Positions 8,856-54,105 of a stretch of DNA of 64,000 nucleotides are shown here, in pieces. This DNA is from Dendrobates tinctorius (Eukaryota), in the NCBI RefSeq assembly GCF_039654945.1, contig NW_027361775.1, forward strand, positions 11,966,001-12,030,000, read 5' to 3'. The number at the start of each line of letters is the position of its first letter. Positions within the stretch are counted from its first letter, which is position 1. Below the pieces are notes generated by a model. The model was not told the DNA's origin, did no database searches, and saw only the letters and a list, made by a program, of their open reading frames with translations. Both the position numbers and the translations under genes were made by a program.

Positions 8856-9289
8856 TATATCTTAATTTTTATATTTTTGTTCTCTCTGCATCATTTCCAT
8901 AATCATATATTTTATAACTGTTCTGCTGAGTGATCAGAATTTTCATAATTTAGCAACATTTAGGCAGTAAAAACAATTTTTCATTTCTGTCATGCCTCTA
9001 TGCATTGATTTCTGAAAAACACCTGAAGGGTTAATAAACTGCCTGATAGTAGTATTCAATTTGTTAAGGGGTGCTGTTTTTAATTGGTTTATTTTTGAGG
9101 GTTTTCCAAAATATTGGTCCACCAAAGTCACTTCCAAACTGAATAGTCTAAAGAAAAATAAGTTTTATAAATTTCCTTGAAAAAATGAAAAATTACTGCA
9201 AAATGTTTAACATTTCTATCATCCTTACAAAATAAAAAAACATTTTACAACAGATGTTGATGTAAATCAGATATAAGCTAAATGTTCTT

Positions 9290-9735
9290 TGTTGTAGCTG
9301 CTTTTCGTTCTGACCAACAGTCAGGTATGCCAGATTACCAGTGAGGCCGGATTATGAGGTTTTCGCCCTTCTGATGACAAGTGCTTGGAGACAAAGAGAC
9401 TCAACACACACGAGCCGTGGTCAAATCACTTTATCTGACGTAATGAAATACAAGGCAATCTTTTATACCATTTACAACAATATGTGATTCTATGGAGCTC
9501 ATGTAGCCCCCACCATCACCCACCATCACCTTCAGGGTTATACCATGTTTACAATGTACCCAGAACATGGTGTTACTGACTATGGAGAAGAAATATGATA
9601 ACAAGTATAGTTTCCTTGAAAACAGAGACTAATTGTCTACATAAGAATAATTCTAGAAATATTAGGCAAAAGGCAATTGAAGTCTTAAAGGCATTTAAAG
9701 GGATATAAAAGCAAACTATTAACTCTTCTATATCA
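9290..9735 (-). repeat. ERV 3' LTR (446 bp)
   Basis: Direct repeat of 23188-23631 with about 21 substitutions and one 2-bp indel by eye; adjacent polypurine tract AAAAGGGGGAAAT on the minus strand (9736-9748). Confidence 0.97.
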
Positions 9736-9858: not shown

Positions 9859-11435
9859 TCAGTGTGAACACTCACTTTCCCCATCTGCAATGGCCACCTG
9901 GGGTCTATGATACACTACAGAAGGTTCAGCCTTAGATTCTTTTTTTATGCATACATTATTCAGTAGCTTAAGTAATACATATATTAGCACTTTTACGGCT
10001 ACATAAAACAATAAGCAAAACAACAAAATTTGCATACAAGTCTGTACAATGCCAAAAATCCATCCTGCAAGGCCATTAAACCAATTTGCTGGATTTAGGA
10101 AAGAGAATGTGTTACCTCACCAGGAGTCTCTGTTTGCACTGTGTTGTTTTGACAATTGGTCTCTAAGTACACCTATCTTGTCTATACTGGCCCTGATCTG
10201 GAGATTGCCAGCAGGGTCGATATATTTACAACAGGTGGGACCAATTATTTGACATATTCCTCCTTCTTTTGCTGTCAGGTAATCTAGTATTAAAGTATGT
10301 TGGATAGTAACTATGATTAATTATCTTTGTATTGTATTAGTTTCATTTAGAACTTCAAGAATCTGGAAAATCTGATTGCCCAGGTAGTCGGTAGCTTCCA
10401 CTAATTTATCCCACATTTGTGTTATGAAGGGGTATAATAGCATACTATTGAATATTTTATTTGTTATCCCCATTTCTACTAGATGTGGCCTACCATTTGG
10501 CCGGGGCTTATTGTCTGCAGCCCTTCTATGCAAGGTGTGAATTGGAACTGCTGCTGTGTCTATTTTACTATGAGGAACTATGAAAGTGACTGGTGTCAGT
10601 TTGGCAAGAGTGTAAACCCCTCTTATGTCTGGCTCACCCACCTGTAGGCACGACATCCGCAAACCAAGAATACTCCTTCAGGGAGAACACAAACGTGACC
10701 AGGGGTCTGTATACATTGGTACAAACTCAAAAGTCCTGACATAGGCTTATGGGCACACCATGTATTATTCATTTGTTTTCCACTTATACCAGATGTGCAT
10801 TTACCCCTTTCTTTCATTATTTTACTCATAGATGCTTTACAGCCTTCAACACCATCCTGGTACACAGTCTCTTTAACCTGTGTTTGATCATGAGTGTATA
10901 TACGGAAGCAATTATTGTCCTTACCACAGGTGTTTGCTCCAGTGTGTTGAAGACTGAACCACAGTCCATCACTGGGAATGGGGTCTGAGTTAGTAATTTC
11001 AGTCCTCCTCCTGGCGACCATATTTCCGGCATCTGAATTATATTCCCGCCACCACATTTGTACCTTAGGCCGCGTTATATTAAACTGAAACCAGGGATTA
11101 GCAGCCCATCCGATTATAGCCAATGAGGCAGATATATCACGGGGCACATCTTTTCCCCAAAACCTAGATTGAGTCCAAGTCTCATGGTGTATGTAGTGTG
11201 GGGTTAATACCTCCATGGCTCCAGAGGTAAGGCTAAGTACGGCATGGTCCTCGCAGATACTGGGCTGTGTGTACAGATCCAACAGTCTTTCGGTTTCTGT
11301 CCTTCCATGTCCTTTATAAGTAGAGCATGATGCCGAATAAGTTTGTTGTCCCAGTCAGCATTTAAGAGTTTATCCTGTCTCTGCAGTGCACAGTAACCCT
11401 GTCACTGCCAGCAAGGTGATGAATAGAACAGTCAT
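9859..11435 (-). pseudogene. env: Retroviral envelope (SU-TM, gamma-type) pseudogene
   Basis: Signal peptide MTVLFITLLAVTGLLCTA from ATG 11435; LHRR cleavage-like site; ISD-like QHTLILDYLTAKEGGIC; CX6CC motif CQIIGPTCC; hydrophobic TM segment. Several stops and a frameshift near 10630. Confidence 0.93.
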
Positions 11436-11521: not shown

Positions 11522-12125
11522 TGTCACGGGGGCTTAGTTCAACTAAGGCTGAAATACCCGGGGCCCCTGTGGTGTCCCTTTACTAGGGGAAACCCTGTCT
11601 GACCCTCAACCCAGGGTTTTTGCTGAAGGTGGAAATGCCTGAGCCTCCGACCTTTCCTTATCTCCTGCTCAGCCCTGCACTTAACCCTCCACCCTCCACC
11701 CAGTGAGAAGTCACCACCAAAGCTCCCACACAAATAATGACAGACAGGGAGAACTTAAACTGCACTGCGCCGCACACACACAGGAATAAACAGTAATGTG
11801 AACAGGGCACAACTAAACACAAATATGGGAAGGAGAAAGGATAACGACGGATCATACGACACCAGATATGAATCTCTCTCTCTTGAACACCTCCACTCCA
11901 GACCGGAACCACTTGGTATGAAACACAAGCTATAATCGGCGACGCCCATATGCCAGTATGACTATTTAAAGACCGTGGGCGTGACTAACCATCCAACCTG
12001 GTCTCCAGCAGGATTAACCCCCGAGAGCCTGAAGATCAGGCCGGCACCACTGAGGCTATAGTGGCTGGAGGTAGAACTACCTCTGCCTGCCGGATGCTGT
12101 GGTGTGAACAGCGTCCGACATGACA
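11522..12125 (-). repeat. Gypsy 3' LTR
   Basis: Direct repeat of 16317-16920 with 3 substitutions seen; preceded on the minus strand by purine-rich AGAAGACGGGG. Confidence 0.98.
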
Positions 12126-15100
12126 GTACCCCGTCTTCTACGAGGGACCCCAGGGCCCTCAAGACTCATAGGACCCGGCTTGTCCGGATGACGACGGTGA
12201 AAAGAACTGACCAGCCGATCCGCATGTATGTCTGAGGCTGGAACCCAAGACCTCTCCTCTGGACCATACCCCCGCCAGTGCACCAAATACTGAAGAGTAC
12301 GGCGTACTACTCGAGAGTCCACTACCTTGGCGACCTCGAACTCTAACTCGCCATCCACCATGACTGGAGGTGGCATCGGCGTCGTGTCCACCAAGCCTAC
12401 CACCTTTTTCAATAAAGCCCTGTGAAACACGTTGTGTATCTTGTACACCGCGGGAAGTTCCAACCGATAAGCTACTGGGTTAATGATGGCAGAAATCCTA
12501 AAAGGCCCAATAAACCTTGGACCCAGTTTTAAAGAAGGGATTTTGAGTTTTATGTTCTTAGTAGCTAACCACACCCATTCACCCACACACAGGTCCGGAC
12601 CTGGCACGCGTCTACTGTCAGCCACCCGTTTGTACCTGGCACTCATGCTCAACAAACGCTGTTTCACCCGCCTCCAGACTGATGACAATTGGGCTCCTAG
12701 CTGATCCTCCTCCGGGACACCCCCGGAGTCACCCTGACGTAAGGTACAAAACTGAGGATGTTGACCGTACACACAAAAGAATGGAGACTCTCCTGATGAC
12801 TCTTGGCGGTGATTATTTAATGCGAATTCGGCCAGAGGAAGGAAAGTAGACCACTCCTCCTGGTTGTCGGACACAAAGCATCGTAAATACTGTTCTAGAT
12901 TTTGGTTCATGCGCTCAGTTTGTCCATTAGACTGTGGATGAAACGCCGATGAATGTGACAACTTGATCCCCAACCTTGAGCAAAAAGCTTTCCAAAACCT
13001 CGCCACAAATTGCGTACCCCTATCAGATACTATGTCAGACGGTACTCCGTGGAGTCTGACCACCTCCTTCACAAATACCTGAGCCAACGTCTTAGCATTG
13101 GGCAAAGAGGACAACGCCACAAAATGCGCCATCTTTGAAAAACGGTCAACCACCACCAGGATGACCGTGTTCCCTGCCGAGGCTGGCAAGTCAGTGATAA
13201 AATCCATGGAGATTTCTGTCCATGGCCTATTGGGTACCCCCAGAGGCTGTAGCGTGCCAGCAGGACGGGTTTGGGGTGACTTAGCCCTAGCGCACGTGAT
13301 GCAAGCTGCCACGTACGAGACCACGTCCTGCCGGATTTTGGGCCACCAGAAATGACGCGATACCAGCTCTAAGGTGCCCTTCACCCCTGGGTGACCAGCC
13401 AGTACCGAATCGTGGTGTTCCTTCAACACCTTAGGCCGAAGATGCAGGGGTACAAATGATTTGTTGGCGGGAAGTGCTGGTGGTACCTCCTCTTGGGCCT
13501 CGGCAATCTCCGCCTCTACCTCAGTCGTGAGAGCCGAGACCACTACCCCTTTCTGGAGGATGGGTACCGGCTCTTCCCGAGGTTCTCCCCCCGGAAAACA
13601 CCTAGACAAAGCATCCGCCTTGGTGTTTTTAGCCCCGGGACGGTACGTCACAAGAAAATTGAAACGAGTAAAAAACAATGCCCAGCGAGCCTGCCTAGGA
13701 GACAGACGCTTGGCCGACTCCAGGTAGAGCAGATTCTTATGGTCGGTGATAACTGTGACCTGGTGAGCCGCCCCCTCCAAGAAGTGTCACCATTCCTCAA
13801 AAGCCAGTTTGATGGCCAACAACTCCCTGTTGCCGATATCATAATTCCGTTCGGCCGGCGACAACTTCTTGGAGAAGTAGGCGCATGGATGCATCTCGCT
13901 CAAGGACGAGCCTTGAGACAGTACTGCCCCCACTCCCACCTCCGACGCATCAACCTCTACCACAAAAGGTTTAGACACGTCTGGTTGCACCAGAATGGGG
14001 GCTGAAGCAAAACTATTCTTCAGACGCTCAAATGCACGTATAGCCACCTCAGGCCAGATCGGCACCCTTTTTTGTCATGTCCGTGAGCGGTTTGGCGACA
14101 GTCGAAAAGTGTTTTATAAATTTCCTATAATAATTCGCAAACCCAAGGAACCGCTGGAGTGCTTTCAGACTCTCCGGCCTCTCCCATTGCAACACCGCTT
14201 GCACCTTAGCGGTGTCCATTTTAAAACCAGCTGCGGACACAATATATCCCAAAAAGGGCAACTCCTGGACAAAAAATAAACATTTTTCCAGCTTAGCATA
14301 GAGCTTATTCTCACGGAGCAGCTGTAACACCTGCCTGACATGCTCTAAATGAGTGTCCCGATCGCTAGAATAAATGAGGATATCATCCAGGTATACAATC
14401 ACAAATCTCCCCAGGACATGAGCAAAGACATCATTAATAAAATGTTGGAAAACGGCAGGCGCGGTGGTCAACCCAAACGGCATAACCAGACTCTCAAAAT
14501 GACCCTCAGGAGTGTTAAACGCCGTCTTCCACTCATCCCCCTGATGGACCCTTATGAGGTTTTACGCCCCCCTGAGGTCCAGCTTGGAAAACCATTTTGC
14601 CCCCGCTACCTGGTTGAACAAATCCGGGATCAACGGCATTGGGTAGGGATCACGGATAGTAATCTGGTTTAACTCTCGGAAATCCAGACACGGGCGTAAC
14701 CCCCCATCTTTCTTCTTAATGAAGAAAAACCCCGCGGCTACAGGCGAGGATGAAGGCCGGATGTGACCTTTGCTCAGACTCTCCGCGATGTAGTCTTTCA
14801 GAGCTTGTCTCTCAGGACCAGAAATATTAAACATCCTGGCCTTAGGTAATTTGGCCCCGGGTTTTAACCTAATAGCACAGTCATAGGCTCTATGTGGAGG
14901 CAGTTCTGAGCAACCCTTCTCAGAGAAAACATCCGCGAAATCCTGCAAAGCCTCTGGCAGGCTGGGCGTCACGGCGGACACACATGTGGCCAAGCAATTG
15001 TCTTGGCAGAAACCACTCCATTGTACTATGTCCTGAGTTTTCCAATCAATTACCGGGTTGTGCCTGGACAGCCATGGAAAACCCAGGACCATTTGAGCTG

Positions 15101-15422
15101 GGAGATTACGGAGGACCCTACATGTAACCGACTCAGAATGTAGGACCCCAATGTGGAGTTTCACCTCTGCCACAAACTCAGTAATCTCCCCTTGAGGGAG
15201 GGGAACAGCATTAATGGTCACCACCTGTATGGGGTGAGGAAGTTTTTCAATCTTAAACCCGGCGGTGTGTGCAAACTCCTCATCTATGAGATTGGTGGCG
15301 GAACCGCTATCCACAAACACTGATATAGGTAGCTCTCTGCCGGCGACAATAACCTTGGCAGGGAGCATACATTGAGATACCATCATGGAGGATATGCATA
15401 CGCTCAGTTGGGTCTCCTCCAT
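12077..15422 (-). pseudogene. pol: Gypsy pol (protease, RT, RNase H, integrase, chromodomain) with three lesions
   Basis: VDSGS protease, [22 protein letters not shown] RNase H, GHPG..CITC and MDFITDLP integrase, GPF, chromodomain YLVHWRGYGPEERSW. Stops at 14562 and 13787, frameshift in the T-run near 14067. Confidence 0.96.
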
Positions 15423-15446
15423 ACCCTCTGAGCTTAACAGTTTTCC
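15385..15446 (-). promoter_or_regulatory. -1 ribosomal frameshift signal (G GAA AAC plus pseudoknot)
   Basis: Slippery heptamer just before the gag stop; pol is in the -1 frame and open across the junction; stem 1 GCTCAG(A)GGGT/ACCC(AA)CTGAGC, stem 2 ATGGAGGA/TCCTCCAT. Confidence 0.8.
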
Positions 15447-16285
15447 GCCGGTGTGACCCTCTTAGGTAGTACCGGGCAAACGTTAACATAATGACCTCCT
15501 TTACCACAGTAGAAACATGCTCCGGACTTCCGGACTCCCGGAGCGCGAGGCTGAACCTGTGCCACGCCAGCAATCTGCATAGGTTCATGGGACTCATCTA
15601 CTTCAACCACACCTGCACCTCTGTTTTCCCCCAGAGGTAGCGTCTCCTGTGCCCCCTGACGAAAACGGCGATCAATACGTATCACCAAACTCATGGCAGA
15701 CTCCAATGATGCCGGAGTCTCATACATCAGGAGGGCTTGTTTCACCCTCCCTGATACCCCATGAATAAACTGGCTCCGCAGTGCTGGGTCATTCCACTGT
15801 GTGTCTACAGCCCAGAGGCGAAATTCCGAACAATAGTCTTCTGCCAAGCGCTCCCCCTGGCGGAGGGCGCGGATTCTAGATTCCGCTAGAGCCAGTCGGT
15901 CAGGGTCATCGTAAATGAGCCCGAGGGCAGAAAAAACATTATCGACCGAATGAAATGTAGCAGAGTCAGGTGGTAAGGAAAATGCCCATGCTTGGGGGTC
16001 ACCACTCAGTAATGACAACACCAGCCCTACTCGCTGGGCCTCATTACCTGAGGATATTGGCCGCATGCGGAAGTATAATTTGCAGGCCTCCCGAAATACG
16101 ACAAATTTGCTGCGAACGCCTGAAAATCGTTCTGGCAGCGGAAACTTCGGCTCTGCACCGATACCTGCAGATGCCGTTTGCACCTTTGCTGCTACCAGTC
16201 CCTGCTGCTGAACTGCCCCATTCAACTCAGAGACCTGTATGGACAGCGCCGCCAACTGGCGGGTTATGGAATCTAATGGATCCAT
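15434..16285 (-). CDS. gag: Gypsy Gag (sushi/PEG10-like capsid plus CCHC zinc knuckle), intact ORF
   Basis: 283-aa ORF with LPERFSG, LRQG..AEDYCSEFR and CFYCGKGGHYVNVC. Confidence 0.93.
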   Translation of the reverse strand: MDPLDSITRQLAALSIQVSELNGAVQQQGLVAAKVQTASAGIGAEPKFPLPERFSGVRSKFVVFREACKLYFRMRPISSGNEAQRVGLVLSLLSGDPQAWAFSLPPDSATFHSVDNVFSALGLIYDDPDRLALAESRIRALRQGERLAEDYCSEFRLWAVDTQWNDPALRSQFIHGVSGRVKQALLMYETPASLESAMSLVIRIDRRFRQGAQETLPLGENRGAGVVEVDESHEPMQIAGVAQVQPRAPGVRKSGACFYCGKGGHYVNVCPVLPKRVTPAENC

Positions 16286-16305
16286 GGACTCCTGAAAAAA
16301 TGTGG

Positions 16306-16315
16306 GCCGATTATA
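16306..16315 (-). promoter_or_regulatory. Self-priming PBS of the Gypsy element
   Basis: TATAATCGGC, 1 nt after the 5' LTR, is perfectly complementary to GCCGATTATA in the LTR (16735-16726); no tRNA-type TGG. Confidence 0.8.
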
Positions 16316-16316
16316 A

Positions 16317-16920
16317 TGTCACGGGGGCTTAGTTCAACTAAGGCTGAAATACCCGGGGCCCCTGTGGTGTCCCTTTACTAGGGGAAACCCTGTCTGACCC
16401 TCAACCCAGGGTTTTTGCTGAAGGTGCAAATGCCTGAGCCTCCGACCTTTCCTTATCTCCTGCTCAGCCCTGCACTTAACCCTCCACCCTCCACCCAGTG
16501 AGAAGTCACCACCAAAGCTCCCACACAAATAATGACAGACAGGGAGAACTTAAACTGCACTGCGCCGCACACACACAGGAATAAACAGTAATGTGAACAG
16601 GGCACAACTAAACACAAATATGGGAAGGAGAAAGGATAACGACGGATCATACGACACCAGATATGAATCTCTCTCTCTTGAACACCTCCACTCCAGACCG
16701 GAACCACTTGGTATGAAACACAAGCTATAATCGGCGACGCCCATATGCCAGTATGACTATTTAAAGACCGTGGGCGTGACTAACCATCCAACCTGGTCTC
16801 CAGCAGGATTAACCCCCGAGAGCCTGAAGATCAGGCCGGCGCCACTGAGGCTATAGTGGCTGGAGGTGGAACTACCTCTGCCTGCCGGATGCTGTGGTGT
16901 GAACAGCGTCCGACATGACA
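16317..16920 (-). repeat. Gypsy 5' LTR
   Basis: Direct repeat of 11522-12125; TATA-like TTTAAATA on the minus strand at 16765-16758. Confidence 0.98.
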
Positions 16921-19900
16921 GTCAGCTGGACTTGGAAGGGGCCGTCAACTCGTGGGTCCAGGCTCCTTCTTACGTGTCTGCGTATAACCACCCAATCACC
17001 TGGATTCAGCTGATGCACATCTGCACTGGCATTAGGATCTGGAAAGGATGAGAACACATGTTTATGCACCACATTAAGTCTTTCCTGCAAGGCCTGGACG
17101 TAGGCTGTCATAGAGCCGTGTTGCATTTGTAGCACCTGTGGGAAATAAAGACCAGTCTTTGGTGCACTACCAAACAGGACTTCAAAGGGAGACAAGCCTG
17201 TCTTTATATTTGGAGTATGTCTGACTGAAAAGAGTGCAAGAGGCAAGCACTCTACCCAGCTCTTTCCTGTGTCTGCCATGGCCTTTTGATTTTTTCAGTT
17301 TAAGTGTCCCATTTAGTCTTTCCACTTTCCCACTACTTTGTGGCCTATATGGTGTATGAAATGCTTGCTGTACACCCAGGGCCTGCATGACTTCCCTCAT
17401 TATTTCTCCTGTGAAATGTGTACCCCTAACGCTTTCTATGGTTTCTGGAACACCATACCTGCAGATCAGTTCTTTCATCAGTTTGTCTGCAGTTGTTTTA
17501 GCATTTGCATATTTTACCGGATAGGCTTCCGGCCAACCAGAGAAGAGATCTACACATACTAGGATATTTGCATACACTCCTACCTTAGGTAACTGTATGT
17601 AGTCATTCTGCAGTCTCTGAAACGGGTAGAGAGGCCTAGGTGTCGCTTTCTTAGGGACTTTTACTGTTTTACCTGGGTTGTGCTGTGCACAGATGAGGCA
17701 TGATTGTGCAAGTTTTGCGGCTGTGTAACTGAAACCAGGAGCTATCCAGAAGGCATCCACCATGGCACACATGTGACTTTTTGAGGTGTGAGTAGGGACA
17801 CGTGTTGCTTGCGCCATAATCGGAAACAGGGACTTTGGTAGGCACAACTTATCCTTATTCTCCCATACTCCGTTCGAGTTCAGCTCAGCTCCCAGTCTCC
17901 CCCGGTGTACCTTCTCTGTTTTGGCAGCCTGTTGCTGGAGAGATTTCAGGACATCTAGGCTCAGTGTGGCTGGAATACGCTGACTCCCCGCCACCATCAA
18001 CTGCTCTCTAGGCCGCCTTGCTGCTACTTTAGCAGCCTTGTCTGCCCTTCTGTTGCCCTCTACCTCCACGGAGTCACCTTTTGTGTGTGCTTTTACCTTG
18101 ACAATGCCAACCTAGACTGGTAACATCAATGCCTCCATTAATTGTTTCACCAGCTCTGCATTTTTAATGGGCTTCGAATCTGTGAAAATATTAGTGACTT
18201 TACCTGCAGCGGCTCTACATGCCTCAGTGAGTGCCTTCAACTCAGGCTCCTGTGCCGACATTTGAGGAGGGAGTGGTTCAGCTCAGATTACCTCATGTGA
18301 GGATACTACTGCATATCCAGTGTAGAATCATTCATCCTGGTGGTATCTGTAGCCAGCTACAAAAAAACTCAAAATCTGCATTAGGAACAGTTCTATGCAG
18401 TCATGATCATGCGTCGTGTCAAAGTATACTTCCTCACTTGCTAATACGGTCACCAATTCCCCCTTTTCTGAATCCACAGGCAAGAGTGTGGCTGGATTCA
18501 GAATGTTACATCTTTTGAGGGTGGCATACTCAGGAATTAGTAGAGCACATGCAAGTCAGAGCTGTCTGGCCATAGACAGATGTTTTGGTTGAACTTGTAC
18601 GAGTATGGAATGGATGTCATATGGGGAATAAATTGTCAAAGGAGTGAGATCATAAGGGTCTGGTGACAAACAGTCATAAAGTGGTTGCAACATTTGTGAA
18701 ACAGGCTTTATCCAAGGCCTACAGTAGGTCACTAAGCCTAGGAAAGTGCGTAGATGCTGATGTGACATGTGCAGAGGGAGATTTTGAATTGCCTGTTTCC
18801 TGTCTTCAGTCAGGTGTCTGGTACCTTCGGCAATATAATGTCCCAAAAATGTCACCTTTTGTTTGCAATACTGTAATTTGTCACGTGAGACCTTGCAACC
18901 CTTTTCTGATAAAAAAAAAAGCATAGCAAGGAAACTGGAGCTTCCCTGCAGGACCTCTGGTCAAGGCAGAACAGCAAAAGGTCATCCACGTACTGTAATA
19001 GAACAATCTGCGGATGAGATGATTGCCACTACTCAAGGATCCCTGCCATTACTGCTCAATAGATGTCAGGGGATTTCTTTCCCCCTTTGTGGGAGGACTG
19101 TCCAACAATATTGTTTACCTTTATGAGTAAAGGAAAAAGATACTGACAGTCAGAGTGCAGGGGTACAGAGAAAAATGCACCTGCTATATCACTGACTATA
19201 AAACATTTTGACATCACTGGGATCTGTCACAGTATTGTGTGTGGATCAGGGACGATTGAGGTCACACTCTCTGTAACATCATTAATAGCCCTTAAGTCAT
19301 GAACCTTTCTGTAAGTGTCAGCAAACCCTTGCGTCCCTTTTCCTTAATGGGATACAAAGGGGTGTTGCAGGAGGATGATCTATGCACTAGAACCCCTGCC
19401 TTAACATACTCTCTAATATCTCTGCTTGGGGCCATTGATTTGGCTAGGCTCAAGGGGTATTGCTTTAAACAAGGAGGAGTGGTTCCTTTTTCCAATTTAA
19501 TGATAACGGGGGAATGGGCAGCCGACCCACATCAGTTTTTCCCCTTGCCCAAACAGTGTCTGGCACCTGTCCCATTTCCTCATCCTCAGGCATTTTGGTG
19601 TCAGGTGTTTGTTTCACCGCTTTTGTCATATACATCATTGCCGCAATCTTACACAAATGTTTATCTGAAAGAGGACTTGTGACTGTAATACCCTCAGGAA
19701 AGTACTGTACGGTGGCCTGGATCGCACTCAGCACATCTGCTCCCAGTAAATTCATAGGGGTATTGTCATTAACAATAAGTTTTGTAAGCACCTCTTGGCT
19801 ATCTTGTAATTTTAGTCTTATTTGTTTAGTCATAAGGGCTTCTGTCACTTGCCCCTCTACCCCCACACATTCCACTGTCTCATTAGTAATCATATCAAAT

Positions 19901-20048
19901 CTTTGTGTACCACAGTCCCAGCTGCCCCAGTGTCTATCAAAAATTCTGCCTCTTTCTCTCCCGGCATTGTTATGGTGGTCATCAAGGCAGGACCAGGTCC
20001 GGAGGGGACAAGAACAGGGCACACATTTGTCACTGGGTTGCCAGTTTC

Positions 20049-21316
20049 CTAGTCTGTATGTGGAGGAGGAGGAAGATTGGTCTGCTTACTCTCCTTTATA
20101 GGGTTTTTGCAATGGCTGGCGTAGTGCCCATTCGCACCACAATTCCAGCACCTCACTGTTTCTATGTCCCTAGGTCCCTTGCTACATCTCCACTATTTTC
20201 CTTGTGTTCCAGCATACATGACAGGAAGTCTTATTGTCCTTGTTTGCTCAACTTCTTTAGCTACCTTAAGGAGGTCTTTCGGATCTACATATCTCCATTC
20301 AGGTCTGGCTGCCTGAACTGCGTCTCCTAAGTCTTTGTTCATACTGTCAATGAATGCATTCACCAGCATTCTAACATCAAGTGGGATTATGCAAATGTAC
20401 CCCATGTCTGCCCATTTCAGCTGTAACTGTCCAAAGTACATCTCTACACTCCCTCCTCTTTGCTGTGTCACATTAGTCAGGAGTCCAGACTTCTCTGATT
20501 GTTCCATTGTAGCCCACTGTTTTAGTGACTCACAGTATGTCTCCCCAGACTGTGCAGATTTATCATCCATGCCCCAAGCCAGATTCCTTGCCACATCTGT
20601 ATGTGTCTTAATTATATGTCCTAGTACGTCACCTGCCTTTAAACTCACCAACCTCTCTAGGTCTGCCCAGGTACACTTATATGTCTGCTGTACTTCCTTT
20701 ATGTTTATGCAAAACGGGAATGGTTGGTCTTCAGAGTCAGGCAACTGCTTCAACAAAGCTAGCTGGTCAGAGGGGCTCCAGGGATAATACACCTGCATCT
20801 TTCTTATTCTAGTCGCCCTTCTAGGTCCTGATGCGGTTGGTCATCTGATGTCTACTGTCAGCTTACTCCTCAAAGGTAAATGTCCCCACTACCCACTAAA
20901 CACACTATTATGTCACTTCATATGATCTTGTCTGGACAGGATTTAGTGCAACTCGCTTAGGTCAGTAGCACAGGTCACACAAGTAGCTATTCAGTCTGGG
21001 TTTGTCTGAGTCTGATCACAGTGTTTACAAGTCCATCTGTTTTGTCTGGGTCTCTGGTTAAATTTTGTCAATCAAAACATTCATAATACACCTTCCATAC
21101 TGCTGCACATTCTCAGACACCATTTATTCACTTGCTATTTTCTTCCCTTGTCTGTGCCTTTTTGTACATCCAAACATTCACACTCTGGTATTTTTGCCTT
21201 TTTCAATATTGGTCCCACTTATTTTACTGCTTCCTTTCTTCTCTTTCTTTTACAATCTGCATAGCTGTCTTGGATCACATTGTGGGCACCGACCGTATAC
21301 AGAAAAAGTTGCCCAT
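20049..21316 (-). pseudogene. gag: ERV gag pseudogene (MA, C4 zinc finger, CA, NC)
   Basis: GCCATGG start giving MGNFF (myristoylation-type) at 21316; capsid-like ORF 20193-20798; NC CWNCGANGHYASHC; amber TAG at 20051-20049 in frame with the protease. Confidence 0.88.
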
Positions 21317-23165
21317 GGCTTCAACCTTTTTCTCCCAACAGCTCACCTTTATTCTGAAATGCCCTTCTAGTGTGCCTAACCTTATCTACGGGCGGCCACA
21401 CGTAGCAACTCAGAGCGAGCCTGCCAAGGTGTAGCGGGAAGGCTCCTTGCCTCTCACCCGGTAGACCTACAGGATGTAACGAGAAGGCTCTCTGCCTCTC
21501 ACCCATTAGATCAGCTGGCTAGAATAGGAATAGGCCTTTTTCCTTCCAGCCCAGCTCCATGGATTGTGGGAAGTCTGCTTCAACTTAGACAGCTCATCTC
21601 TCTTCTGAAATGCCCTTCTGTCTGTCTGGACCTCTGTCCTACAGCCCACACATAGCATGTCAGAGTGAGCCTGTCAATGAGTATCCAGAAGGCTCCTTGC
21701 CTTCGCCTCTCACCCACAACAAAAAAAACTCCCTGACTAAAGTAAGAAGGCCCAGGTGTGATAGGCCTCTAACCTACTTTATCAGTCATATAGTCAGTTA
21801 CCTCCTCTGTTGATCCACAATTTGCTATACAAATCAATCGCACAACTAGAAGCAGGTTCAAACACATTTATGACCAAACAATCACTTACAGTGTCCAAAC
21901 AATCACTTATGATTTCCTTCTAAATTAGGCACCATATTTTACTTTCATCTTCAACTTACAAATTTCATTCCACTTCAATTAAGTACTGTTGCTTTAAAAT
22001 GCACAAATCTAATAGCAAGTATTTCACCAAGGACACCCACAGAGAATCTTGAACGCCTCTCCGTGCCTCCTCCTATTAGACACTCAGCAGAGGAGAAGAG
22101 AAATCGCATCGCGCAGCGGCATCATTCCCCCTCCCATCAGAATGTAGTGTCCTCCATAAAGTAACAGAATGCCATAGCTCTTTAGACTTAATCAAAATCA
22201 TTTTCTACAAGGAAAACTCAAAATCACAGGATTTCACTGTAAGAGCAGATAACTGTATAATGTGATTAACCGAGTCTTGCCCTTTTTCTGGCCAAATGCA
22301 TTTAGGAAACTTTACAATGTAATGTCAGATATAACACGAGCTATATCATTACTCAATTCATTCAGTCTCAGATGTAGATTTGAAATATCTATAATGCATC
22401 TGTCCGGGATCTCCCACAAACCTAGAAAGGTAACAATCTCTTGACTTTGACACAAAATGATGTGTGATGATTCATTCATACGTGCTCATTCAGGGATTTT
22501 TTCCTTTCACTTTCCAGTGGTCATTTGATTTTACAAAGAGAAGATAACAAAAATCCCTTATACTCAATTACTCCTCTCTCATCTCATTCAGAGGTTCTCA
22601 TAGACATACATACAAGGATTCACACAGCCCGCCTATCTTGCGCTTTGGATTTGACACCTTAACCCCTACAGCAGTGTCCACTGACACTCTGAGAACTCTG
22701 AGAACACCAAAGCCAACTTCTTAAACAACAAGAATCAATGAAAACCAAACCAGCCAAAAACCATAGCCCTATACAAAATACAGCCTCATATGATTTACTG
22801 CCAATCCAAAATCACACTGCACAGAGTCTATCCCAGGCTTTGTGCTACACAGTACACCAGTACACAACCAGTTAGTATATTAGTATATTGCCAGAACAGA
22901 TTAACAGATAATACAGATGACAATTATTATCTTATTACTCTATTATTCAACTCTCATACGGACATATTCACCACTCACTGGTTATGTGGGTTCTTTTGAA
23001 CCGTGTTGTACAGTCTTACCCAGAGATATGTAGGCATCCTTAGAGAGGCTGCAGATGCAGAATCAATGTAAGAATAAATGTTCTCACCTGCTGCAGCCTG
23101 GATTCTGCATATTAAACCTCCCAGGAAGCTCCCACATACGGATTCCGAATAGGCTGGTTTCCACG

Positions 23166-23183
23166 GTCCCCGTTGGGCGTCAA
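23166..23183 (-). promoter_or_regulatory. ERV primer binding site, tRNA-Lys(1,2)-like
   Basis: TGACGCCCAACGGGGAC a few nt after the 5' LTR, compared with canonical TGGCGCCCAACGTGGGGC. Confidence 0.75.
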
Positions 23184-23187
23184 AAAC

Positions 23188-23631
23188 TGTTGTAGCTGCT
23201 TTTTGTTCTGACCAACAGTCAGGTATGCCAGATCACCAGTGAGGCCGGATTATGAGGCTTTCGCCCTTCTGATGACAAGCGCTTGGAGGCAAAGAGACTC
23301 AACACACGAGTCGTGGTCAAATCACTTTATCTGATGTAATGAAATACAAGGCAATCATTTATTCCATTTACAACAATATGTAATTCTATGGAGCTCATGT
23401 AGCCCCCATCATCACCCACCATCACCTTCAGGGTTAAACCATGTTTACAATGTACCCAGAACATGTTGTTACTGACTGTGGAGAACAAATATGATAACAA
23501 GTATAGTTTCCTTGAAAACAGAGACTAATAGTCTACATAAGAATAATTCTAGCAATATTAGGCAAAAGGCAATTGAAGTCTTAACAGCATTTAAAGAGAT
23601 ATAAAAGCAAACCATTAACTCTTCTATATCA
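23188..23631 (-). repeat. ERV 5' LTR
   Basis: Direct repeat of 9290-9735; adjacent to the PBS. Confidence 0.97.
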
Positions 23632-25136
23632 TCTTCATAAACTATTTTGTGAAGTATGACTATCTGGATTATCAATTTATAAATTGATAGTTTTTTTATT
23701 TTTTGTCTAATTTCTGATATTTTTACATATAAATGCAAAACGTATCGACCTAAATCTACAATTAGCACAAAATATAATGTGTCACGAAAAAAGGTCTCAA
23801 AATCACTGGGGAATATTGAAATCTTTAGCGTTATTGCGACATAAAGTAACACATTTAAAAATGACAGATTTCAAATTTTTGTCTGGTCACTAAGGGGTTA
23901 ACTCAAGTACCTCCAGCTTATATTAATGTGCCACTGAGGTCAGTGTGAAGAATAATGTTTACATTGCGTGTCAAATATCACTTTCCATGTCAAATAAAAA
24001 GAAGCCAGGATAATATGGTGCTATTTTATTTGCAGCTTTTTCTCCTCTTACATGAGAATATGTTATATTGTTTGTGTATTTATGTTGCCTTGAAATATAT
24101 GGGTGATTCATTTTTATATAAATATAATGTAAACAAATTGAGTCTCAAAATATATTTACCTTGCAGTATTAATTTATTAAAACATTTTATGAACACATTG
24201 AAAATAAAGAGAGCTTGTAGGCAGGTGTAAGGGAAATATAGTGGGGGGGAAATTTGATGGGGAGTCTTTTTAAAGAGACTTTTGACTGTGTTGCCGCTAT
24301 TTGCACACAACATATCAGTATCACAAGACGTTTGATCAATTTTGTGCATTACACTACTTTGTGTAAATGTTATTTCAGTTTTCAAGCCACCCTTTTATGA
24401 AAGTGAGATTACAGCTTTGTAAAAAAAAGTCATAAATCTGGCTATAAATTCATTTGCATAGATAATGACTTTGAAAAGTGGCGAGGGCAATATAAACTGT
24501 GATAAATTCTGTGCATCAAAAGACTTTCTAGTGTACATTTATGTTACCCAACTATTATACTTTTTCCACCCATGAATCTGAATCCAACATTTAGGGCCCC
24601 CAAATACATTAGTTTAATGCTTGCCAAACCCACCAATATTACTGTGTGCTGACTCTTCCCTGACGGATGATACCTGGCAATCCAACATGTTGGATTTCCA
24701 AAAGATCAATCCTTTTGTTCTCTGGGAAATAAGCCACTACAAGGAATTTGGCAGCTTGTTTTCTCATAGAGAATACATGAGTTCTTATTTACTGTTTCTG
24801 GAGGAGTTGGAAGAGATAGTTGAGGATCGGTCAGGTGGCTTAGGAAAGAAAAAGTAGCGATTGTAAAACTTTTTATATGCTTTAGTTAAACACTTTCATA
24901 ACAAGCAACAAATAATGTCAGAATACTGAAAACTAACAAATAGAAAAGAAAAGGGGTCAACAATGGCGATAAGCACACCTCCATATAAATGTAACACATG
25001 TTATTAGGTATAAAGTGTCATATTAAAAACAATCACAAATACAAAATTGACCACAACAATTGCATCCAATAAATAACCATACCCAACCCACAAAATGGAA
25101 TCCCAAACTAGGATACGATGGTAATCATAATTAGTA

Positions 25137-25232: not shown

Positions 25233-25744
25233 TAAGAATACTCAATGGTATACAGACAAAAAAATGAACCCATGGTCAGTACATATAGTCTGTACGTAGC
25301 ATATAGTAGTAATATCATGGAGAGCATCAAAAAATCATTTCATAATTAACAACTGAAGGGCAAATGCATAATATAAAGTAAAACAATATATTGCATAAAT
25401 AGCAAGATGACAAGACCACAGACATTGGAAAGAGAATGATACATATATACAGGTGCTTCTCACAAAATTAGAATATCATTAAAAAGTTAATTTGTTTCAG
25501 TTCTTCAATACAAAAAGTGAAACTCATATATTATATAGCATCATTACAGACAAAAACAGAGTGCTTTATTTCAAGTTTTTATTTCTGTTAATGTTGAAGA
25601 TTATTAATTAGAGAAGTGATGTGGCACTACGGATGCTGTGGTCAAGTAGGGTCCCAAACCAATAGTAATAATAAGCAAAACTTGGCACTCAACTTAGATA
25701 GATGAATAGAATGATGTATTAATGTACAGTCAGTAGTACAGAAT

Positions 25745-25785
25745 TCAGACGTTTTGGTCTCGATTGACCTTCATCAGAGTCTGAC
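25745..25785 (-). ncRNA. Degenerate minimal type I hammerhead ribozyme motif
   Basis: Minus strand CTGATGA-A-GGTC-AATCGA-GACC-AAAA-CGTC; the inverted copy at 27856-27885 retains GAAA. Confidence 0.5.
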
Positions 25786-26987
25786 AGAAGAACAAGTATG
25801 CAGAAAATAAGTGTACAGAAAATAATCACTATAGAAGCCAACAAGGCCTAATATATCTTGAAAATTATAAACAAATCACTGTGAAGCATGGTATAATAAC
25901 ACACTATATACAAGTGATCTGATAACGCATGTTATCCCAGATAATGAGTGCAAGAAAAAAGAAAAAGTAGGTAAAAGGGATTTTTAGGATTCAGGTAACA
26001 TACCTGACTGCTATGGTAGATAAGTAGAGGATAAGGGAGCGCAAGGCACATAATCCCTAAGAGCCTATATGAGATGAAACAGTATAAATAGTACATACTA
26101 AAGGTGGAGATGGTGGTTTAAATAGAGTCACCTACTTAATATTCCATGTTTGGTAAATCAGGTCCCATACCAGAGGATACCTGTAAGTTAGACCGGGGCT
26201 AATAAGTGGGGATATGGATGGTAATAATTTGAAGTAAAATAAGATGAGGAAAAAATCCATACCTTATATTAGTAATGGTGCTGTTCATGCACCAGAGTAT
26301 ATCTTGTGAGATACAGCCTAAAGGATATATAGTAATACACACTATAAGGGATAAGTGAGGGTAGTCCCTTAATAACTACAATAATGGGTTAACATACCGT
26401 TAATGGGTAGAACGACTGCTCAGATCAAACGTGGTGTCCACTGCTAGTTGCCGACCAATGTGACATTTCACTAGAGTGATATATAAGGAAGGCGTGGGAC
26501 AATAAGCAGGTCTGACCAATCTCGTATCTCAGTGCAATGCTGGATGTGACGTGATGTGCTGGTGTCCGTGCGCTCCAAGAATAGGAAGTGCACTGTGCGT
26601 TCCACTAGACCGGAAGTGCCCGTGTTTGCATTTCAGGAAACCAGAAGTGTTTCCGCATTTGCGTTCCATGAGACCGGAAGTGCCCGTGTTTGCGTTCCAG
26701 GGCTAGTTTAGAGCACATATCGCTGTCCAGAGTGAGATAGATCTGACCTGAGCAGTCATTCTAAACATTAATGGTATATTAACCCTTTATTATAGTTACT
26801 AAGGGACTACCCTCACTTATCACTTACAGTGTGTATTACTATATATCCTTTAGACTGTATCTCGCAAGATATACTCTGGTGCATGAACAGCACCATTACT
26901 AATATAAGGTATGGATTTTTTCCTCATCTCATTTTACTTCAAATTATTACCATCCACTTCCCCACTTATTAGCACCAGTCTAATTTA

Positions 26988-27443
26988 GGCTGGTTTCACA
27001 TTAGCGTTTCAGGCCACAGCGTCGTCCTGTGCACGGCCGCCGCTAAGCCCTGCCCCCTGTCGCGCCTCTGCCGGTAGCTCTGCCTACGGGTGCATGATGC
27101 TGCATGCGTCCTGCGTTCCCTATCTTTAGCACTGGGGATGCAGGCCGTGCACAGGTATGCGTTTGGTGGCGCATGCATCCTTTTGACGGTGCGCCGAGGG
27201 CACCAAATTGCAACAGGTTGCGTTTGGCGCTGGTCGGCGCACCCGTCAAAAGGACGCATGCGCCGCCAAATGCATACCTGCACACGGCCTGCATCCCCAG
27301 TGCTGAAGATAGGGGACGCAGGACGCATGCTGCCTCATGCACCCGTAGGCGGAGCTACCGCGGAGGCACGGCAGGAGGCAGGGCTTAGCGGCGGCCGTGC
27401 GCAGGACGACGCTGCGGCCTGAAACGCTAATGTGAAACCACCC
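26988..27443. mobile_element. Almost wholly palindromic PIF/Harbinger-type MITE (456 bp)
   Basis: GGCTGGTTTCACATTAGCGTTTC...GAAACGCTAATGTGAAACCACCC, TTA TSD; the empty site is visible in the opposite arm near 26183. Confidence 0.9.
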
Positions 27444-28108
27444 TTACAGGTATCCTCTGGTAAGGGACCTGATTTACCAAACATGAAATATTAAGTAGGT
27501 GACGCTATTTAAGCCACCATCTCCACCTTTAGTATACACTATTTATACTGTTCCATCTCACATATAGGGTCTTAGGGATTACGTGCCTTGTTCTCGGTTA
27601 TTCTCTACATATCTATCATAGCAGTTGGGTAGGTTACCTCAATCCTAAAAATCCCTTTTACCTACTTTTTCTTTTTTCTTGCACTCATTATCTGGGATAA
27701 CATGTGTTATCAGATCACTTGTATATAGTGTGTTATTATACCATGCTTTACAAGGATTTGTATATAATTTTCATGATATATTAGACTTTGTTGGCCTCTA
27801 TAATGATTATTTTCTGTACACTTATTTTCTGCATACTTGGTCTTCTGTCAGTACACTCATGAAGATCAATCAAGACCGAAAAGTCTGAATTCTGTACCAC
27901 TGACTGTATATTAAAACATCATTCTATTCATCTAAGTTGAGTGCCAAGTTTTATTTATTACTAATGCTGAAGATTATGGCTTACAGCCAATGAAAACCCA
28001 AAAGTCATCATTATCTCAGTAATTTAGAATACTTTATAATACTAGCTTGAAAATTAATTTTAAAATCCAAAATATTGGCCTACTGAAATGGATGTTCAGT
28101 AAATGTAC

Positions 28109-48913: not shown

Positions 48914-49349
48914 TTAGTAATGTCAAAGTGACCTCACCATTGGAAATGGAGTGTACCATTTAACCCCTAAACAACCAGAGCTATTTTTGGTTTTGCATTT
49001 TCATTTTTTGCTCCGATTCTTCGCAGGGCAATAACTTTTTTTTAAATTTTTTTTATTAAAATGGCCATGTGAGGGCTTGTTTTTTGCAGGACAAGTTGTA
49101 ATTTTGAATGACACAATTGGTTTTACCATGTCATGTACTCGAAAATAGTAACAAATTGTGTGGCGAAATTGCAAAAAATGTGCAATCCCACTGATGTTTC
49201 TTAACAGTATGATTCTCCAGGTCATTACGAGTTCATAGACACCAAATATGTCTAGGTTCTTTTTTATTAAAGTGGTGAAAAAATTTCCAAATTTTGTTAA
49301 AAAAAAATTCCGCTATGTTCAGATACTCATAGCATCTCCATTTTTCCTG

Positions 49350-50076
49350 ATCTTGGTTTGGTTGAGGGATTCCCCTGACGAAGCTGCGGCTAGCAGCGAT
49401 ACGCGTGGGGCTCCCCACATCACTTTTGTCCCGGGACCATTGCTCCTTTTGTCCTGACATCCCTGATGCTGTGACATGGATTGCTCTGTTTGGTGACTAG
49501 CTGGCTAATTGAGCCTTCATTTATCTATTGGTGTTATCTCTATTGCAGTTTACTTTTGTCTCTGCACATTAGGGAGACCTCCCTTTGCTTTAGGGACATC
49601 TTTACAAACATACATATTCTTTCCAATAGCAGTCTATGGGCTTTCTGATGCTTCGTACAGGGTTCCTCTCCTCACAGCCCCCTGGGGACGCCCAGTTCGG
49701 CATTATACTCATGCATTAGGAGACTGTTTATATACACTGCTATTTTCTAGGGATTGTTTTCCCACATGTATATACCTTTTCTATGTGGTATTGTATTTTG
49801 ACATATTGTTGTTCCATGGGACTTATAGTGATGTGTTTTGTCCTTTTTTAAATGATTTTATCGTGGTATTTTTGTCTACCAATAAAATTTCAATATATCT
49901 ATACACATATTTGTATGTACTGCATATATGTCTATTTTTGGGTGTGCGCCTTTATATGCATGGATCTTTTTCTCTTCTTCATTGCATGCTACTCTTTGTG
50001 CATTGTGCAGCACCCCTGTACGTATTAGATTCTATTTTATATATACCCTTAAGTAGTGCTCTGTATTTCTTTAATC
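49350..50076 (+). mobile_element. Penelope-like pLTR/3' fragment with hammerhead motif
   Basis: CCC-CTGACGA-A-GCTGC-GGCTA-GCAGC-GATA-CGCG-T-GGGG at 49372-49410, then a T-rich tail with AATAAA. Confidence 0.6.
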
Positions 50077-50099
50077 TTCCACAACTATACTCTTGGAGT

Positions 50100-51320
50100 C
50101 AAGACCATATGAGCGGAGTGGGCAGTTCAGAGGCAGAGGTAGTGGTCATGCTATCCCAGCTGCATAGCAAAAAAGAGAGCAGGGTGCAACAGCATTGAGG
50201 CCGACACCTTTCCATTAAGTTGGTTGCTATTGTGCACTGCGATAGGCTCCTAGCCTTTTCTCTGTCCATGTTTTCCCCTGTTTGTACTTCTCTTCATCCA
50301 CTGTCTCCTCATCTGGTTAGAAAATGCGGGCCATCTGAAGGCACTTTTGGCATTCTCACCCTACTACTGGTCGCCTGTTTGCAATGCAGCATCACTTCTG
50401 CCTTTCTGCTCCCCACCTCATATGTAATGTACCAACAAGGTGGAACTCTACTTTGCACATGTTGTAGAGTCTGTGCAAGCAGCAGCCAATACTGGAGTTT
50501 GAGCTGCAGCATGCACGGATAAGGCACGCTCAGGAACAATGTCACTTCACAACCAAGGACTGGGCCTCCATATGGGATGTTGAATACTCCACGAACATGA
50601 CCAGCACAGATGACATCATCATCAGCATTCATTACTATCCCACATATGCCTCCTAGAAAAAAAAGCTTCAGTCAATGATAGATGAGATGGTGGCACAAGA
50701 GGAAGAGTAGGAAGAATAGAGAACATTCTCACTATTATGAGGCCAGGCATCCATAGATGTCTTGGAGAGTGGGTTCCTGTTCCAACACAAATGTCCAGCT
50801 AGGTGACAGTTTTGGAAGATGAGAAACAGCCATGTTCACTGCAGGGTGGCACTCAAAGAAGCTCACAGGCATCACTGTAGCATGGCTGGAGGAATACAGA
50901 TGATATACATCCCACCGAGCACAGCTTGTCATTGCCTCTGGGCAGCCTGGCACACAAGAGGCAACACATGCTGCTGTGCCTGCTCAATGACTGCCAAGTT
51001 GTCCGAATTGTTCGAATTGCTGATTACTGGGTATTCACCCTGCTTGATTCCCAATACAAGCACAATGGCAATGTGCTGTTCTTGCTTCCATCGCTAGAGA
51101 AAGTTTGGAAAATGCAGGAATTCAAGCACACGCTGGTAGATGCACTATTGACGGCGTCCTCACCTGACAGCAGTGGCTCAGTGTAAGTTAAGAGCAGAGG
51201 AGAATGAAGTCGCCAACAAAGCTGGGGCCCTGTCACCACCTTGGAAAGGATGGCTAGCATGGCAGACATGCAAAATCCAGCACCATCATCTGATACTATC
51301 CCTTGCTGTGAATTCGCTTT
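50100..51320 (+). pseudogene. Decayed hAT transposase fragment
   Basis: LICNVPTRWNSTLHML, acidic tract and ADYWVFTLLDSQYK parallel the motifs of the transposase at 57060-60458. Confidence 0.75.
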
Positions 51321-52582
51321 CTGGCTTACAGTACCTCTGGTTACTACTGAAGGTAGTGGAGCTGGTCAAATTGACAGAGGGGTTGCAAGTTCTCTTTCTG
51401 GGTTCCCTCTGGTGGTTACTGGAGGTAATGGAGCTGATCTGATTAACAGAGGCTTGCCACCTGATAATGAGGACGACGATTGGAGATCTGGGGTTTCAGA
51501 CTGGGATTTAAGACAGCCGACTCCCTATATCCCTGCTGGTGATTTCCTTCCTGCCTCCTGAGGTCTTAATTTCCAGCTCAGTCTGCAGCAGAAGAGGGAG
51601 CAGGAGGAGGCTCAGATCTGTCATGCTTTTTAAGGTGTGTTCTCCACTGCACCTCATCCTTGGAATTCAGATGCCTTGTTATGCAGGTAGTGCATAAAAT
51701 ACAATAATAGGTGATCAAAAGATTGTATCTGCACCAAAATTGTGTCATTAAAAACATTAGCTTGGTGTACAAAAATTAACTCTCACTCAACCCAAGGTCA
51801 CGAAGAAAAGATGCTACGGGTTTCAGAAAATGACACAATTTTTTCTTACAAACTTTGGCATTTTTTTCACCACTTAAATAAAAATGAACCTATACATATT
51901 TGGTGTTTATGAACTCATAATGATCTGGGGAATAATAATGGCAGGTCAGTTTTAGTGAACATGGTGAAAAAAAACAAAAAACAACTGTGAGATTGCACTT
52001 TTTTGCAATTTCACCGCACTTGGAATATTTTTTCCATTTTCGAGTACATAATATGGTAAAACCAATAGTATCATTCAATAGTACAACTAGTCCTGCAAAA
52101 AACAAGCCATCACACGGCCATTTTGACCAAAAAATAAAAAGTTATGGCTTTGGGAATAAGGGGTGCAAAAAATGAAAATGCAAAACCAAAAATACCTCTG
52201 GTTGTTAAAGGGTTAACAACTCTTCTCAGGTCCACAAAAATCTCTTTGTTCATGATATGAGACACTCCCACAAATATGTGTCATAAAGATTACACTTTGA
52301 TAGACTCCTGTTTTTGTAATAAAACAGGTTGCTCACTCACATCTAATTGTAATCCTATGCATGACATAATTTGTTTGATAGGTTTTCTTTAGCTATTTTT
52401 AATATTTCTGTAAAAATCTGATGTATTTTTAGGTGAAATTTATGCAGAGATATGGGAAATTCTCAAGTGTAAATCATAGTCATTTCTACTTTCCTGATAC
52501 AAAGAAATGTGAAAAAACACACCTAGTTAAATGGTCTAACTAAAACAATGCATTCTCTGATTGGCAGCATCATACCACCAAG

Positions 52583-53348: not shown

Positions 53349-54105
53349 TCTAATATATAAAGCTCAAGTGTGTGTATGTATGTGTGTGTATATCAAGCCC
53401 CGCCCCTCATTATGATGTCATAATGGTTGCAATGGCGACGCTGATGTCATCATAGGTTGCAAGCCCCACCGCTCATTATGATGTCATAATGGAGGATGTG
53501 TGATAGGTATATGGGCACTGGACTATGGGATGGAGGATATGTATGATGGTATATAGGCACGGGACTATGGGATGGAGGATGTGTGATGGGTATATGGGCA
53601 CTGGACTATGGGATGGAGGATATGTATGACGGGTATATGGGCATGGGACTATGGGATGGTGGATATGTATGATAGGTATATGGACACGGGCCTATGAGAT
53701 GGAGGATATGTATGATGGGTATATGGGCATGGGACTATGGGATGGAGAATATGTGTGATGGGTATATGGGCATGGGACTATGGGATGGAGGATGTGTGAT
53801 GGGTATATGGGCACTGGACTATGGGATGGTGGATATGTATGATGGGTATAGGGGCACGGGACTATGGGATGGAGGATATGTATGATGGGTATATGGGCAT
53901 GGGACTATGAGATGAAGGATGTGTGATGGGTATATGGGCACTCGACTATGGGATGGCGAATATGTATGATGGGTATATGCGCATGGGACTATGGCATGAA
54001 GGATGTGTGATGGGTATATGGGCATGGGACTACGGGATGGAGAATATGTGTGATGGGTATATGGGCATGGGACTATGGGATCATGGATATATATGATGGG
54101 TATAT
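53349..54105 (+). mobile_element. Possible non-autonomous Helitron-like 5' part, truncated at the hAT
   Basis: Starts TCTAATATATAAAG after a (TA)n tract, then (GT/GTAT)n and a minisatellite; no CTAG/hairpin 3' end found. Confidence 0.4.
53492..54105 (+). repeat. Minisatellite, 41-43-bp unit, about 14-15 copies
   Basis: Unit GGGATGGAGGATATGTATGATGGGTATATGGGCATGGGACTAT. Confidence 0.95.

Follow-up and report, generated by a model that had tools for sequence, protein, structure and literature searches.

A broken RanBP2-type zinc finger in a Dendrobates tinctorius provirus and its intact relatives in frog retroviral Gag proteins

A 64,000-nucleotide stretch of the Dendrobates tinctorius genome (contig NW_027361775.1; hereafter the window) contains a 14.3-kb provirus with a broken motif in its Gag region. 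Between matrix and capsid, the minus strand spells most of a RanBP2-type four-cysteine (C4) zinc finger, interrupted by a stop codon. This raises two questions, namely whether the motif is the remnant of a real domain and what such a domain would do in viruses which kept it intact. The features of the provirus are collected in Table 1.

Table 1. Features of the provirus in the window, listed from the 5' to the 3' end of the element.
Feature	Position	Strand	Remarks
Target-site duplication, 4 bp	23632..23635 and 9286-9289	.	four identical letters next to each outer LTR end
5' LTR (444 bp)	23188..23631	-	21 mismatches/444 aligned sites against 3' LTR = 4.7%
Primer-binding-site-like stretch	23165..23182	-	just inside 5' LTR, position seen directly
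gag start (Met-Gly) and matrix-like region	21036..21316	-	frameshifted, with stops
Broken RanBP2-type C4 zinc finger	20970..21035	-	first six residues identical to intact P0002 finger
Spacer end and predicted capsid-start proline (about 20940)	20911..20961	-	shifted frame
Capsid ORF	20193..20840	-	homologous to frog ERV Gags
Single nucleocapsid CCHC knuckle	20109..20150	-	zf-CCHC E=0.006, under curated cut-off; HIV NC matches
gag TAG, then in-frame protease (DTG), RT (YVDD), RNase H, integrase with MLVIN_C	16872..20051	-	frameshifted
Nested chromodomain-bearing Ty3/gypsy element	11522..16616	-	inserted between pol and env
env transmembrane region	9976..10287	-	TLV_coat E=8e-9; broken env reaches to about 11500
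3' LTR (446 bp)	9290..9735	-	paired with 5' LTR

Read from the letters, positions 21035 to 20970 of the minus strand give W-T-C-K-H-C-x5-N-P-D-stop-x3-C-V-T-C and include a tandem hexamer at 21014-21003, just as the original prediction had described. Five residues separate the second cysteine from the asparagine, compared with three in the family signature, and the stop lies inside the loop. A relaxed pattern (W-x-C-x2-4-C-x3-5-N-x6-C-x2-C) was matched once in the 64-kb window, at this site only; the strict form (W-x-C-x(2,4)-C-x3-N-x6-C-x2-C) had a count of 0 in the window copy. A chance origin was ruled out by order-2 Markov simulations of the window, in which the relaxed pattern, set after the motif had been seen, was matched in 0/150. 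Moreover, the window finger aligns with the intact finger of the closest relative, P0002 (residues 112-131), inside a Gag-wide match, and by this alignment it is judged homologous to a finger at the same place in Gag. The motif is a real but broken remnant of a RanBP2-type four-cysteine finger. Because there are stops and frameshifts upstream, within, and downstream of it, the window copy is unable to make the finger and is itself a dead fossil.

The provirus has a gag stop followed by an in-frame DTG protease, a YVDD RT, an MLV-type integrase C-terminus, and a 4-bp duplication, which together identify a class I (gamma/epsilon-like) endogenous retrovirus (ERV). The primer-binding-site-like stretch may read as tRNA-Lys-like, and no tRNA gene was found in the 64-kb window. 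All integrase relatives with names are from frogs. These frog-only named matches and the homology of the Gag to that of RMERV would place the provirus in the RMERV clade, which is described in part of PMC12690878 as anuran-specific and epsilon-like. It is to the Gag of this epsilon-like element, and not to that of a gammaretrovirus, that the window Gag is homologous. The same paper equates 98.0% with 2.0 My, and scaling from this figure suggests an age of roughly 4-5 My for the provirus. The gypsy element nested in it is younger, with terminal repeats that are 100% identical over the 300 nt compared, and contains gag, protease, RT, integrase, and chromo domains; young as it is, its coding region is split across several ORFs. 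Elsewhere in the window, long nested inverted repeats (25699-27934 and 48960-52216, 86-93% complementary) are probably DNA-transposon or foldback elements, and 53495-54148 is occupied by a tandem array spaced at 41-43 nt, in which 12 copies, overlapping one another, were listed.

Mapping of P0002 onto the window located the breaks in the Gag frame. The matrix-like region contains a frameshift, across which the alignment to P0002 passes from residues 1-29 to residues 25-54 in the next frame. A second frameshift closely follows the finger, in the interval 20970-20961, and a third precedes the capsid ORF. It is by net compensation of these frameshifts alone that the finger falls in the capsid frame in the window copy. 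The start codon at 21316, named in the original prediction as the MGNFF start, lies in another frame. The same prediction began the capsid at 20798, and the conserved proline near 20940 is the likelier start; the piece around it is 65% identical to P0002 residues 136-152, and the protease would be expected to cleave at this proline. The nucleocapsid (NC) CCHC knuckle was present where it had been placed. Upstream of gag, a leader of about 1.85 kb (21317-23164) has no notable Pfam match in three frames and, by eye, repeats part of itself imperfectly (about 21730-21600 and 21470-21350).

The identity of the broken motif was settled by relatives in which the finger is intact. A phmmer search with the gag frame (X at stops) against 1.84 billion representatives returned 49 matches; 30 of these were looked up and, several being without a name, all those named are from frogs or from a toad ERV. 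Ten of the 49 contain the signature W-x-C-x2(4)-C-x3-N-x6-C-x2-C upstream of capsid. The finger was part of the query, yet in six of these ten the best-scoring stretch lies in the capsid, downstream of the finger. P0002 has the intact spacing within one Gag protein. The Pfam profile PF00641 (gathering cut-off 27 bits), proposed as a check in the original prediction, gave a divided answer. The window copy has no match at E<=10, either as the X-read-through frame or as a 75-residue piece. Among the relatives, 44 of the 49 were scanned, leaving out five knuckle-region matches, and eight scored, with P0006 (34.9 bits) and P0024 (28.1 bits) above the cut-off and six others at 15.8-25.4 bits; the profile did not match the signature-bearing P0035 and P0037. 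In three of ten further proteins it scored under the cut-off.

In total, 12 distinct intact fingers were collected, and the finger-bearing proteins come from eight frog genera (Anomaloglossus, Ranitomeya, Phyllobates, Ascaphus, Engystomops, Rhinoderma, Bufo, and the Rhinella marina ERV). The exact spacing is kept in Gags that are only about 25-46% identical. In P0035, P0037, and P0052 the RanBP2-type finger is succeeded by another cysteine cluster of non-canonical form (C-x-C...C-x2-C), which recalls the two fingers of AnERV9. A word-indexed protein search with P0001 found no relatives, and one with alignment A2 gave three matches, all of them its own input rows or their cluster mates. The viral contig search gave no relative, and the protein atlas (clusters of at least 50 members) held generic Gag clusters only, none listing PF00641. 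A separate observation concerns P0007 (Dendropsophus), P0020 (Anomaloglossus), and P0060 (Eleutherodactylus), in which RING-bearing, TRIM-like N-termini are fused to a related capsid and knuckle. Each falls on its own branch of the capsid tree, and they are either gene-model artefacts (ERVs within TRIM genes) or recurrent real TRIM-capsid fusions; if real, they could be restriction factors.

Further evidence came from other copies of the element. The motif stretch is present in sequencing runs of four organisms, and four runs of three organisms were compared with it, their contigs showing presence only. Summed depth reaches about 2,900-27,000 in two large runs, which suggests a large family, depth giving no copy number. 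Among the pieces listed, four X2 contigs (4-8 other letters) cross the tandem hexamer with no gap and one X7 contig crosses it with two gap letters. An X1 contig that is 7% diverged, and whose changes are all accounted for, retains both the spacing and the stop. Among the 40 of 49 rows listed, with 1003 pieces outside the listing, no row touches the stop codon and none gives a six-letter gap. As diverged copies cross the site ungapped and one keeps the stop, the breaks look common to a subfamily, contrary to the idea that they are private decay of this copy. Such a subfamily, its gag being broken, would have depended on help in trans to spread. In a few contigs of low depth and greater divergence there are 8-18 gap letters and, near 21060, about 36 extra letters; by eye, these look like the proline-rich stretch before the P0002 finger that is missing in the window copy. 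No RNA data containing the motif stretch were listed.

Structure models are consistent with the family assignment. In the model of P0056, a natural protein of 79 residues, pLDDT is 85-89 across the finger, and the model overlays the fingers of Nup153, RanBP2, and TRABID at 0.4-0.7 Å over 26-27 residues. All of these matches have E>0.01, which is no surprise for a domain of this size. A wide fold search of 48,161 chains gave 15 rows at Z>=2, all RanBP2-type fingers (Z 2.1-3.0), and the fold matches do not separate the subfamilies. Confidence in such models should be read with the caution, found in part of PMC12383448, that confident short-finger models can arise even from random sequences. The intact fingers are predicted to form two orthogonal knuckle hairpins, and zinc binding through the four cysteines would follow from family membership. 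The full P0006 Gag is modelled with a helical domain in the region matching matrix (pLDDT about 84-93), disordered linkers flanking the finger, and a capsid that matches MLV capsid (6hwx, E=1.5e-5). In its fold search the viral match of second rank was Chelonid alphaherpesvirus 5 'ICP4c' (V5NX06, E=1.5e-8, rmsd 40 Å), a result for which disordered proline-rich stretches are probably responsible. The prediction of a RanBP2-type finger in the matrix-capsid spacer is thus borne out in the relatives by the signature, the profile scores, and the modelled fold.

The position of the finger within Gag is regular. The order in relatives is matrix, a proline-rich stretch with PPxY, finger, R-P, conserved proline, and capsid. 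A PPxY lies at most 35 residues upstream of the finger in seven of 11 proteins and is the sole PPxY of the protein in six of these seven; two of the four proteins without one nearby have just 11-14 residues upstream. It is missing from just upstream of the finger in P0002, P0006, and the window copy. An invariant proline is found 10-21 residues past the fourth cysteine in 9/9 rows. As this is the predicted capsid start, the finger would sit in a p12-like spacer peptide. Two strands lie between this proline and the first capsid helix in the P0006 model, where the N-terminal hairpin of a retroviral capsid is expected. PSAP or PTAP follows the finger in P0009 and P0055. L-Y-P-x-L/V words after the finger were considered as ALIX motifs and rejected; that of P0018 aligns with the invariant proline of the other rows and reads more simply as the putative capsid cleavage site, and those of P0009 and P0015 lie outside the alignment.

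Over seven rows, identity in the non-signature columns of the finger is 34%; the corresponding values are 26% in matrix, 26% in the spacer, and 30% in capsid. A quick tree was built from 41 capsid rows, without those covering <110 residues (P0024 and P0051 among them); P0002 is labelled short in it but does have the finger. Along the unresolved base of this tree the finger turns up in seven places, interspersed with rows that lack it or have a degenerate one. This fits an ancestral module with losses and is also compatible with shuffling. Several long Gag relatives have no finger (P0004, P0013, and P0031) or a degenerate one (P0003 and P0016), so the finger looks dispensable. Macro domains were observed in Gag before the capsid in P0009, P0015, P0055/P0011, and P0048 (E about 1e-21 to 1e-27), and macro domains in fish epsilon-like ERVs are described in part of PMC4977317.

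The ligand class was approached through surface motifs. Residues after the second cysteine include no T-F/Y/L in any of the 12 distinct Gag fingers, which extends to the whole family the absence of the TF dipeptide noted for the window copy. The L-V-like pair, which in nucleoporin fingers has a role in Ran binding and whose pattern was taken from the Nup153/RanBP2 matches, is found after the second cysteine in 0/12. The aromatic-x-Arg motif has a role in RNA binding by ZRANB2-type fingers, and the aromatic-x-Arg-Arg seen after the asparagine in the ZRANB2 alignment is likewise found in 0/12. The Gag fingers have a surface pattern of their own, x-x-Q-N-P...C-G-x-x-R-P, with Q before the asparagine in nine and P after it in ten of the 12; the net charge of 30-residue finger windows is -3 to +2. 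In the parts of PMC12383448 that set out the RanBP2-type signature, three ligand classes (ubiquitin, Ran, and RNA) are distinguished, TF is critical for ubiquitin binding, and one TF-less look-alike does not bind ubiquitin. With none of the three subfamily motifs and near-zero charge, the finger of the intact relatives most likely serves as a distinct type of protein-binding module. Direct matches vary between fingers. RanBP2 and Nup153 fingers rank 2-5 for P0006, and the best matches of the P0002 finger are other subfamilies, all weak (best PDB match ZRANB2, E=0.065). A resemblance of the P0002 finger to one Nup358 finger was not recovered by direct search, and no donor is proposed.

Our preferred reading, held tentatively, is that in intact relatives the finger helps the adjacent PPxY late domain to recruit the ubiquitin/ESCRT machinery in budding. 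The protease would cut at the conserved proline and release a p12-like peptide with PPxY and finger. The finger would bind a ligase, an adaptor, or an ESCRT subunit without the usual TF surface. This role is favoured because the coupling to PPxY is the sole positive clue and because precedents exist in MLV p12 and in an NZF that binds ESCRT-I. MLV p12 recruits ESCRT via PPPY and binds WWP2 (excerpts of PMC6021111), and yeast Vps36 NZF-N contacts the ESCRT-I subunit Vps28 directly (excerpts of PMC4874542). For two Ascaphus fingers, Vps36-NZF-N scores are weak (E about 0.01) and stay well under the cut-off. Several observations stand against a budding role. Proximity to PPxY may merely reflect a shared, tolerant spacer, which in some relatives also houses Macro domains. 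The TF that is critical for ubiquitin binding (PMC12383448, in part) is absent in 12/12 fingers. The best matches of the modelled fold are Ran-binding nucleoporin fingers, all at E>0.01. Finally, the lack of a PPxY just upstream in P0002, P0006, and the window copy and the apparent dispensability of the finger count against it.

The finger could instead act after entry, on a peptide that stays on the core like p12 and anchors the core at the nuclear pore, Ran, or chromatin. The position is that of MLV p12, which, besides binding capsid, attaches the pre-integration complex to nucleosomes (PMC6021111, in part). Moreover, RanBP2/Nup153 fingers rank high by sequence for P0006 and take ranks 1-2 by fold for P0056, and the Q-N of nine of the 12 Gag fingers is also found in Nup153/RanBP2 fingers. 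We nevertheless regard this as unlikely, since the L-V-like pair of nucleoporins is missing from all 12 Gag fingers, the P0002 finger prefers other subfamilies, and nucleoporins have arrays of four to eight fingers (PMC12383448, in part) whereas most Gags have one.

Patchy presence on the capsid tree, variable surface positions, and a large subfamily that seemingly spread with its finger broken would all suit a near-neutral passenger, a stable zinc ribbon which the spacer retains although nothing in the host binds it specifically. This is improbable given the exact spacing kept across eight genera at about 25-46% identity and the extra conserved positions Q-N-P and G-x-x-R-P; a subfamily with a gag stop would moreover have spread in trans and is uninformative on the finger. 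Quite improbable, too, is a module that disrupts ubiquitin- or ADP-ribose-based innate signalling. In P0009, P0015 (RMERV), and P0055 a Macro domain stands behind the finger, and the fold matches include fingers of TAB2, HOIL-1L, and TRABID; however, most finger-bearing Gags have no Macro domain, TF is absent, and fold matches do not separate subfamilies. The least probable role is a second RNA-binding module which selects or exports genomic RNA and offsets the single NC knuckle of most Gags of the lineage, for although one family branch binds single-stranded RNA (PMC12383448, in part) and ZRANB2 is the best PDB match of the P0002 finger, the lack of aromatic-x-Arg (0/12), the proline after the asparagine (10/12), and the charge of -3 to +2 leave the RNA-packaging role of the original prediction with no sequence support among the 12 fingers.

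Beyond the choice of role, a wider reading is conceivable, if rather doubtful. In it, PPxY and a finger with its own surface, sometimes with a Macro domain, would form an undescribed, lineage-wide p12-analogue domain of Gag, ancestral from Ascaphus to neobatrachian hosts. Its partner would lie outside the three known ligand classes, so that the finger family would gain a fourth functional branch and retroviruses a new route for budding or nuclear entry. That very diverged frog retroviruses keep a finger next to their late domain suggests a host interaction missing in mammalian model viruses. The domain has only 30 residues and is easy to assay, and its spread, position, and atypical surface pose a testable question. 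To our knowledge, MLV p12 contains no zinc finger, and we know of no folded zinc finger in the matrix-capsid spacer of any studied retrovirus.

Whether the finger had been reported was left undecided in the original prediction; it has been, in a preprint on AnERV9 of Gastrophryne carolinensis (Free, Nichols, Kanda; bioRxiv 10.1101/2024.07.05.601823), whose main text describes two RanBP2-type fingers in Gag; UniRef, too, already names P0037 a RanBP2-type domain protein. This prior record in print is a bare fact of two sentences in the main text, which, tables and supplement aside, does not give the position, spread, or function of the fingers. In literature beyond the preprint, most subscription papers lying outside the search, nothing was found on lineage-wide spread, position, or function, and 'RanBP' does not occur in the portions of PMC12690878, PMC4977317, and PMC8672886 covered. 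By its description in the main text, AnERV9 resembles the window copy as an anuran ERV with RanBP2-type fingers and a single CCHC knuckle in Gag, a DTG protease in the gag frame, an epsilon-like pol, and a gamma-type env. However, it has two fingers and no predicted myristoylation signal, whereas the window copy starts with Met-Gly and has a single finger; on this comparison of descriptions, the window copy would fall outside the AnERV9 family.

The Gag of RMERV (AWS20966.1, P0015) is homologous (E=9e-19) and has PPPY, then finger, then capsid, but it contains an additional Macro domain and is only 31% identical. Compared with cellular PF00641 fingers (NZF; Nup153/RanBP2; ZRANB2/FUS), the intact relatives share the signature and the predicted fold, whereas the Gag fingers lack all three subfamily surface motifs tested. 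MLV p12 is alike as a matrix-capsid spacer with a PPPY late domain (PMC6021111, in part). RanBP2-type fingers in frog retroviral Gag were thus known already, and what is added here is their spread, their place in a late-domain spacer, and their atypical surface.
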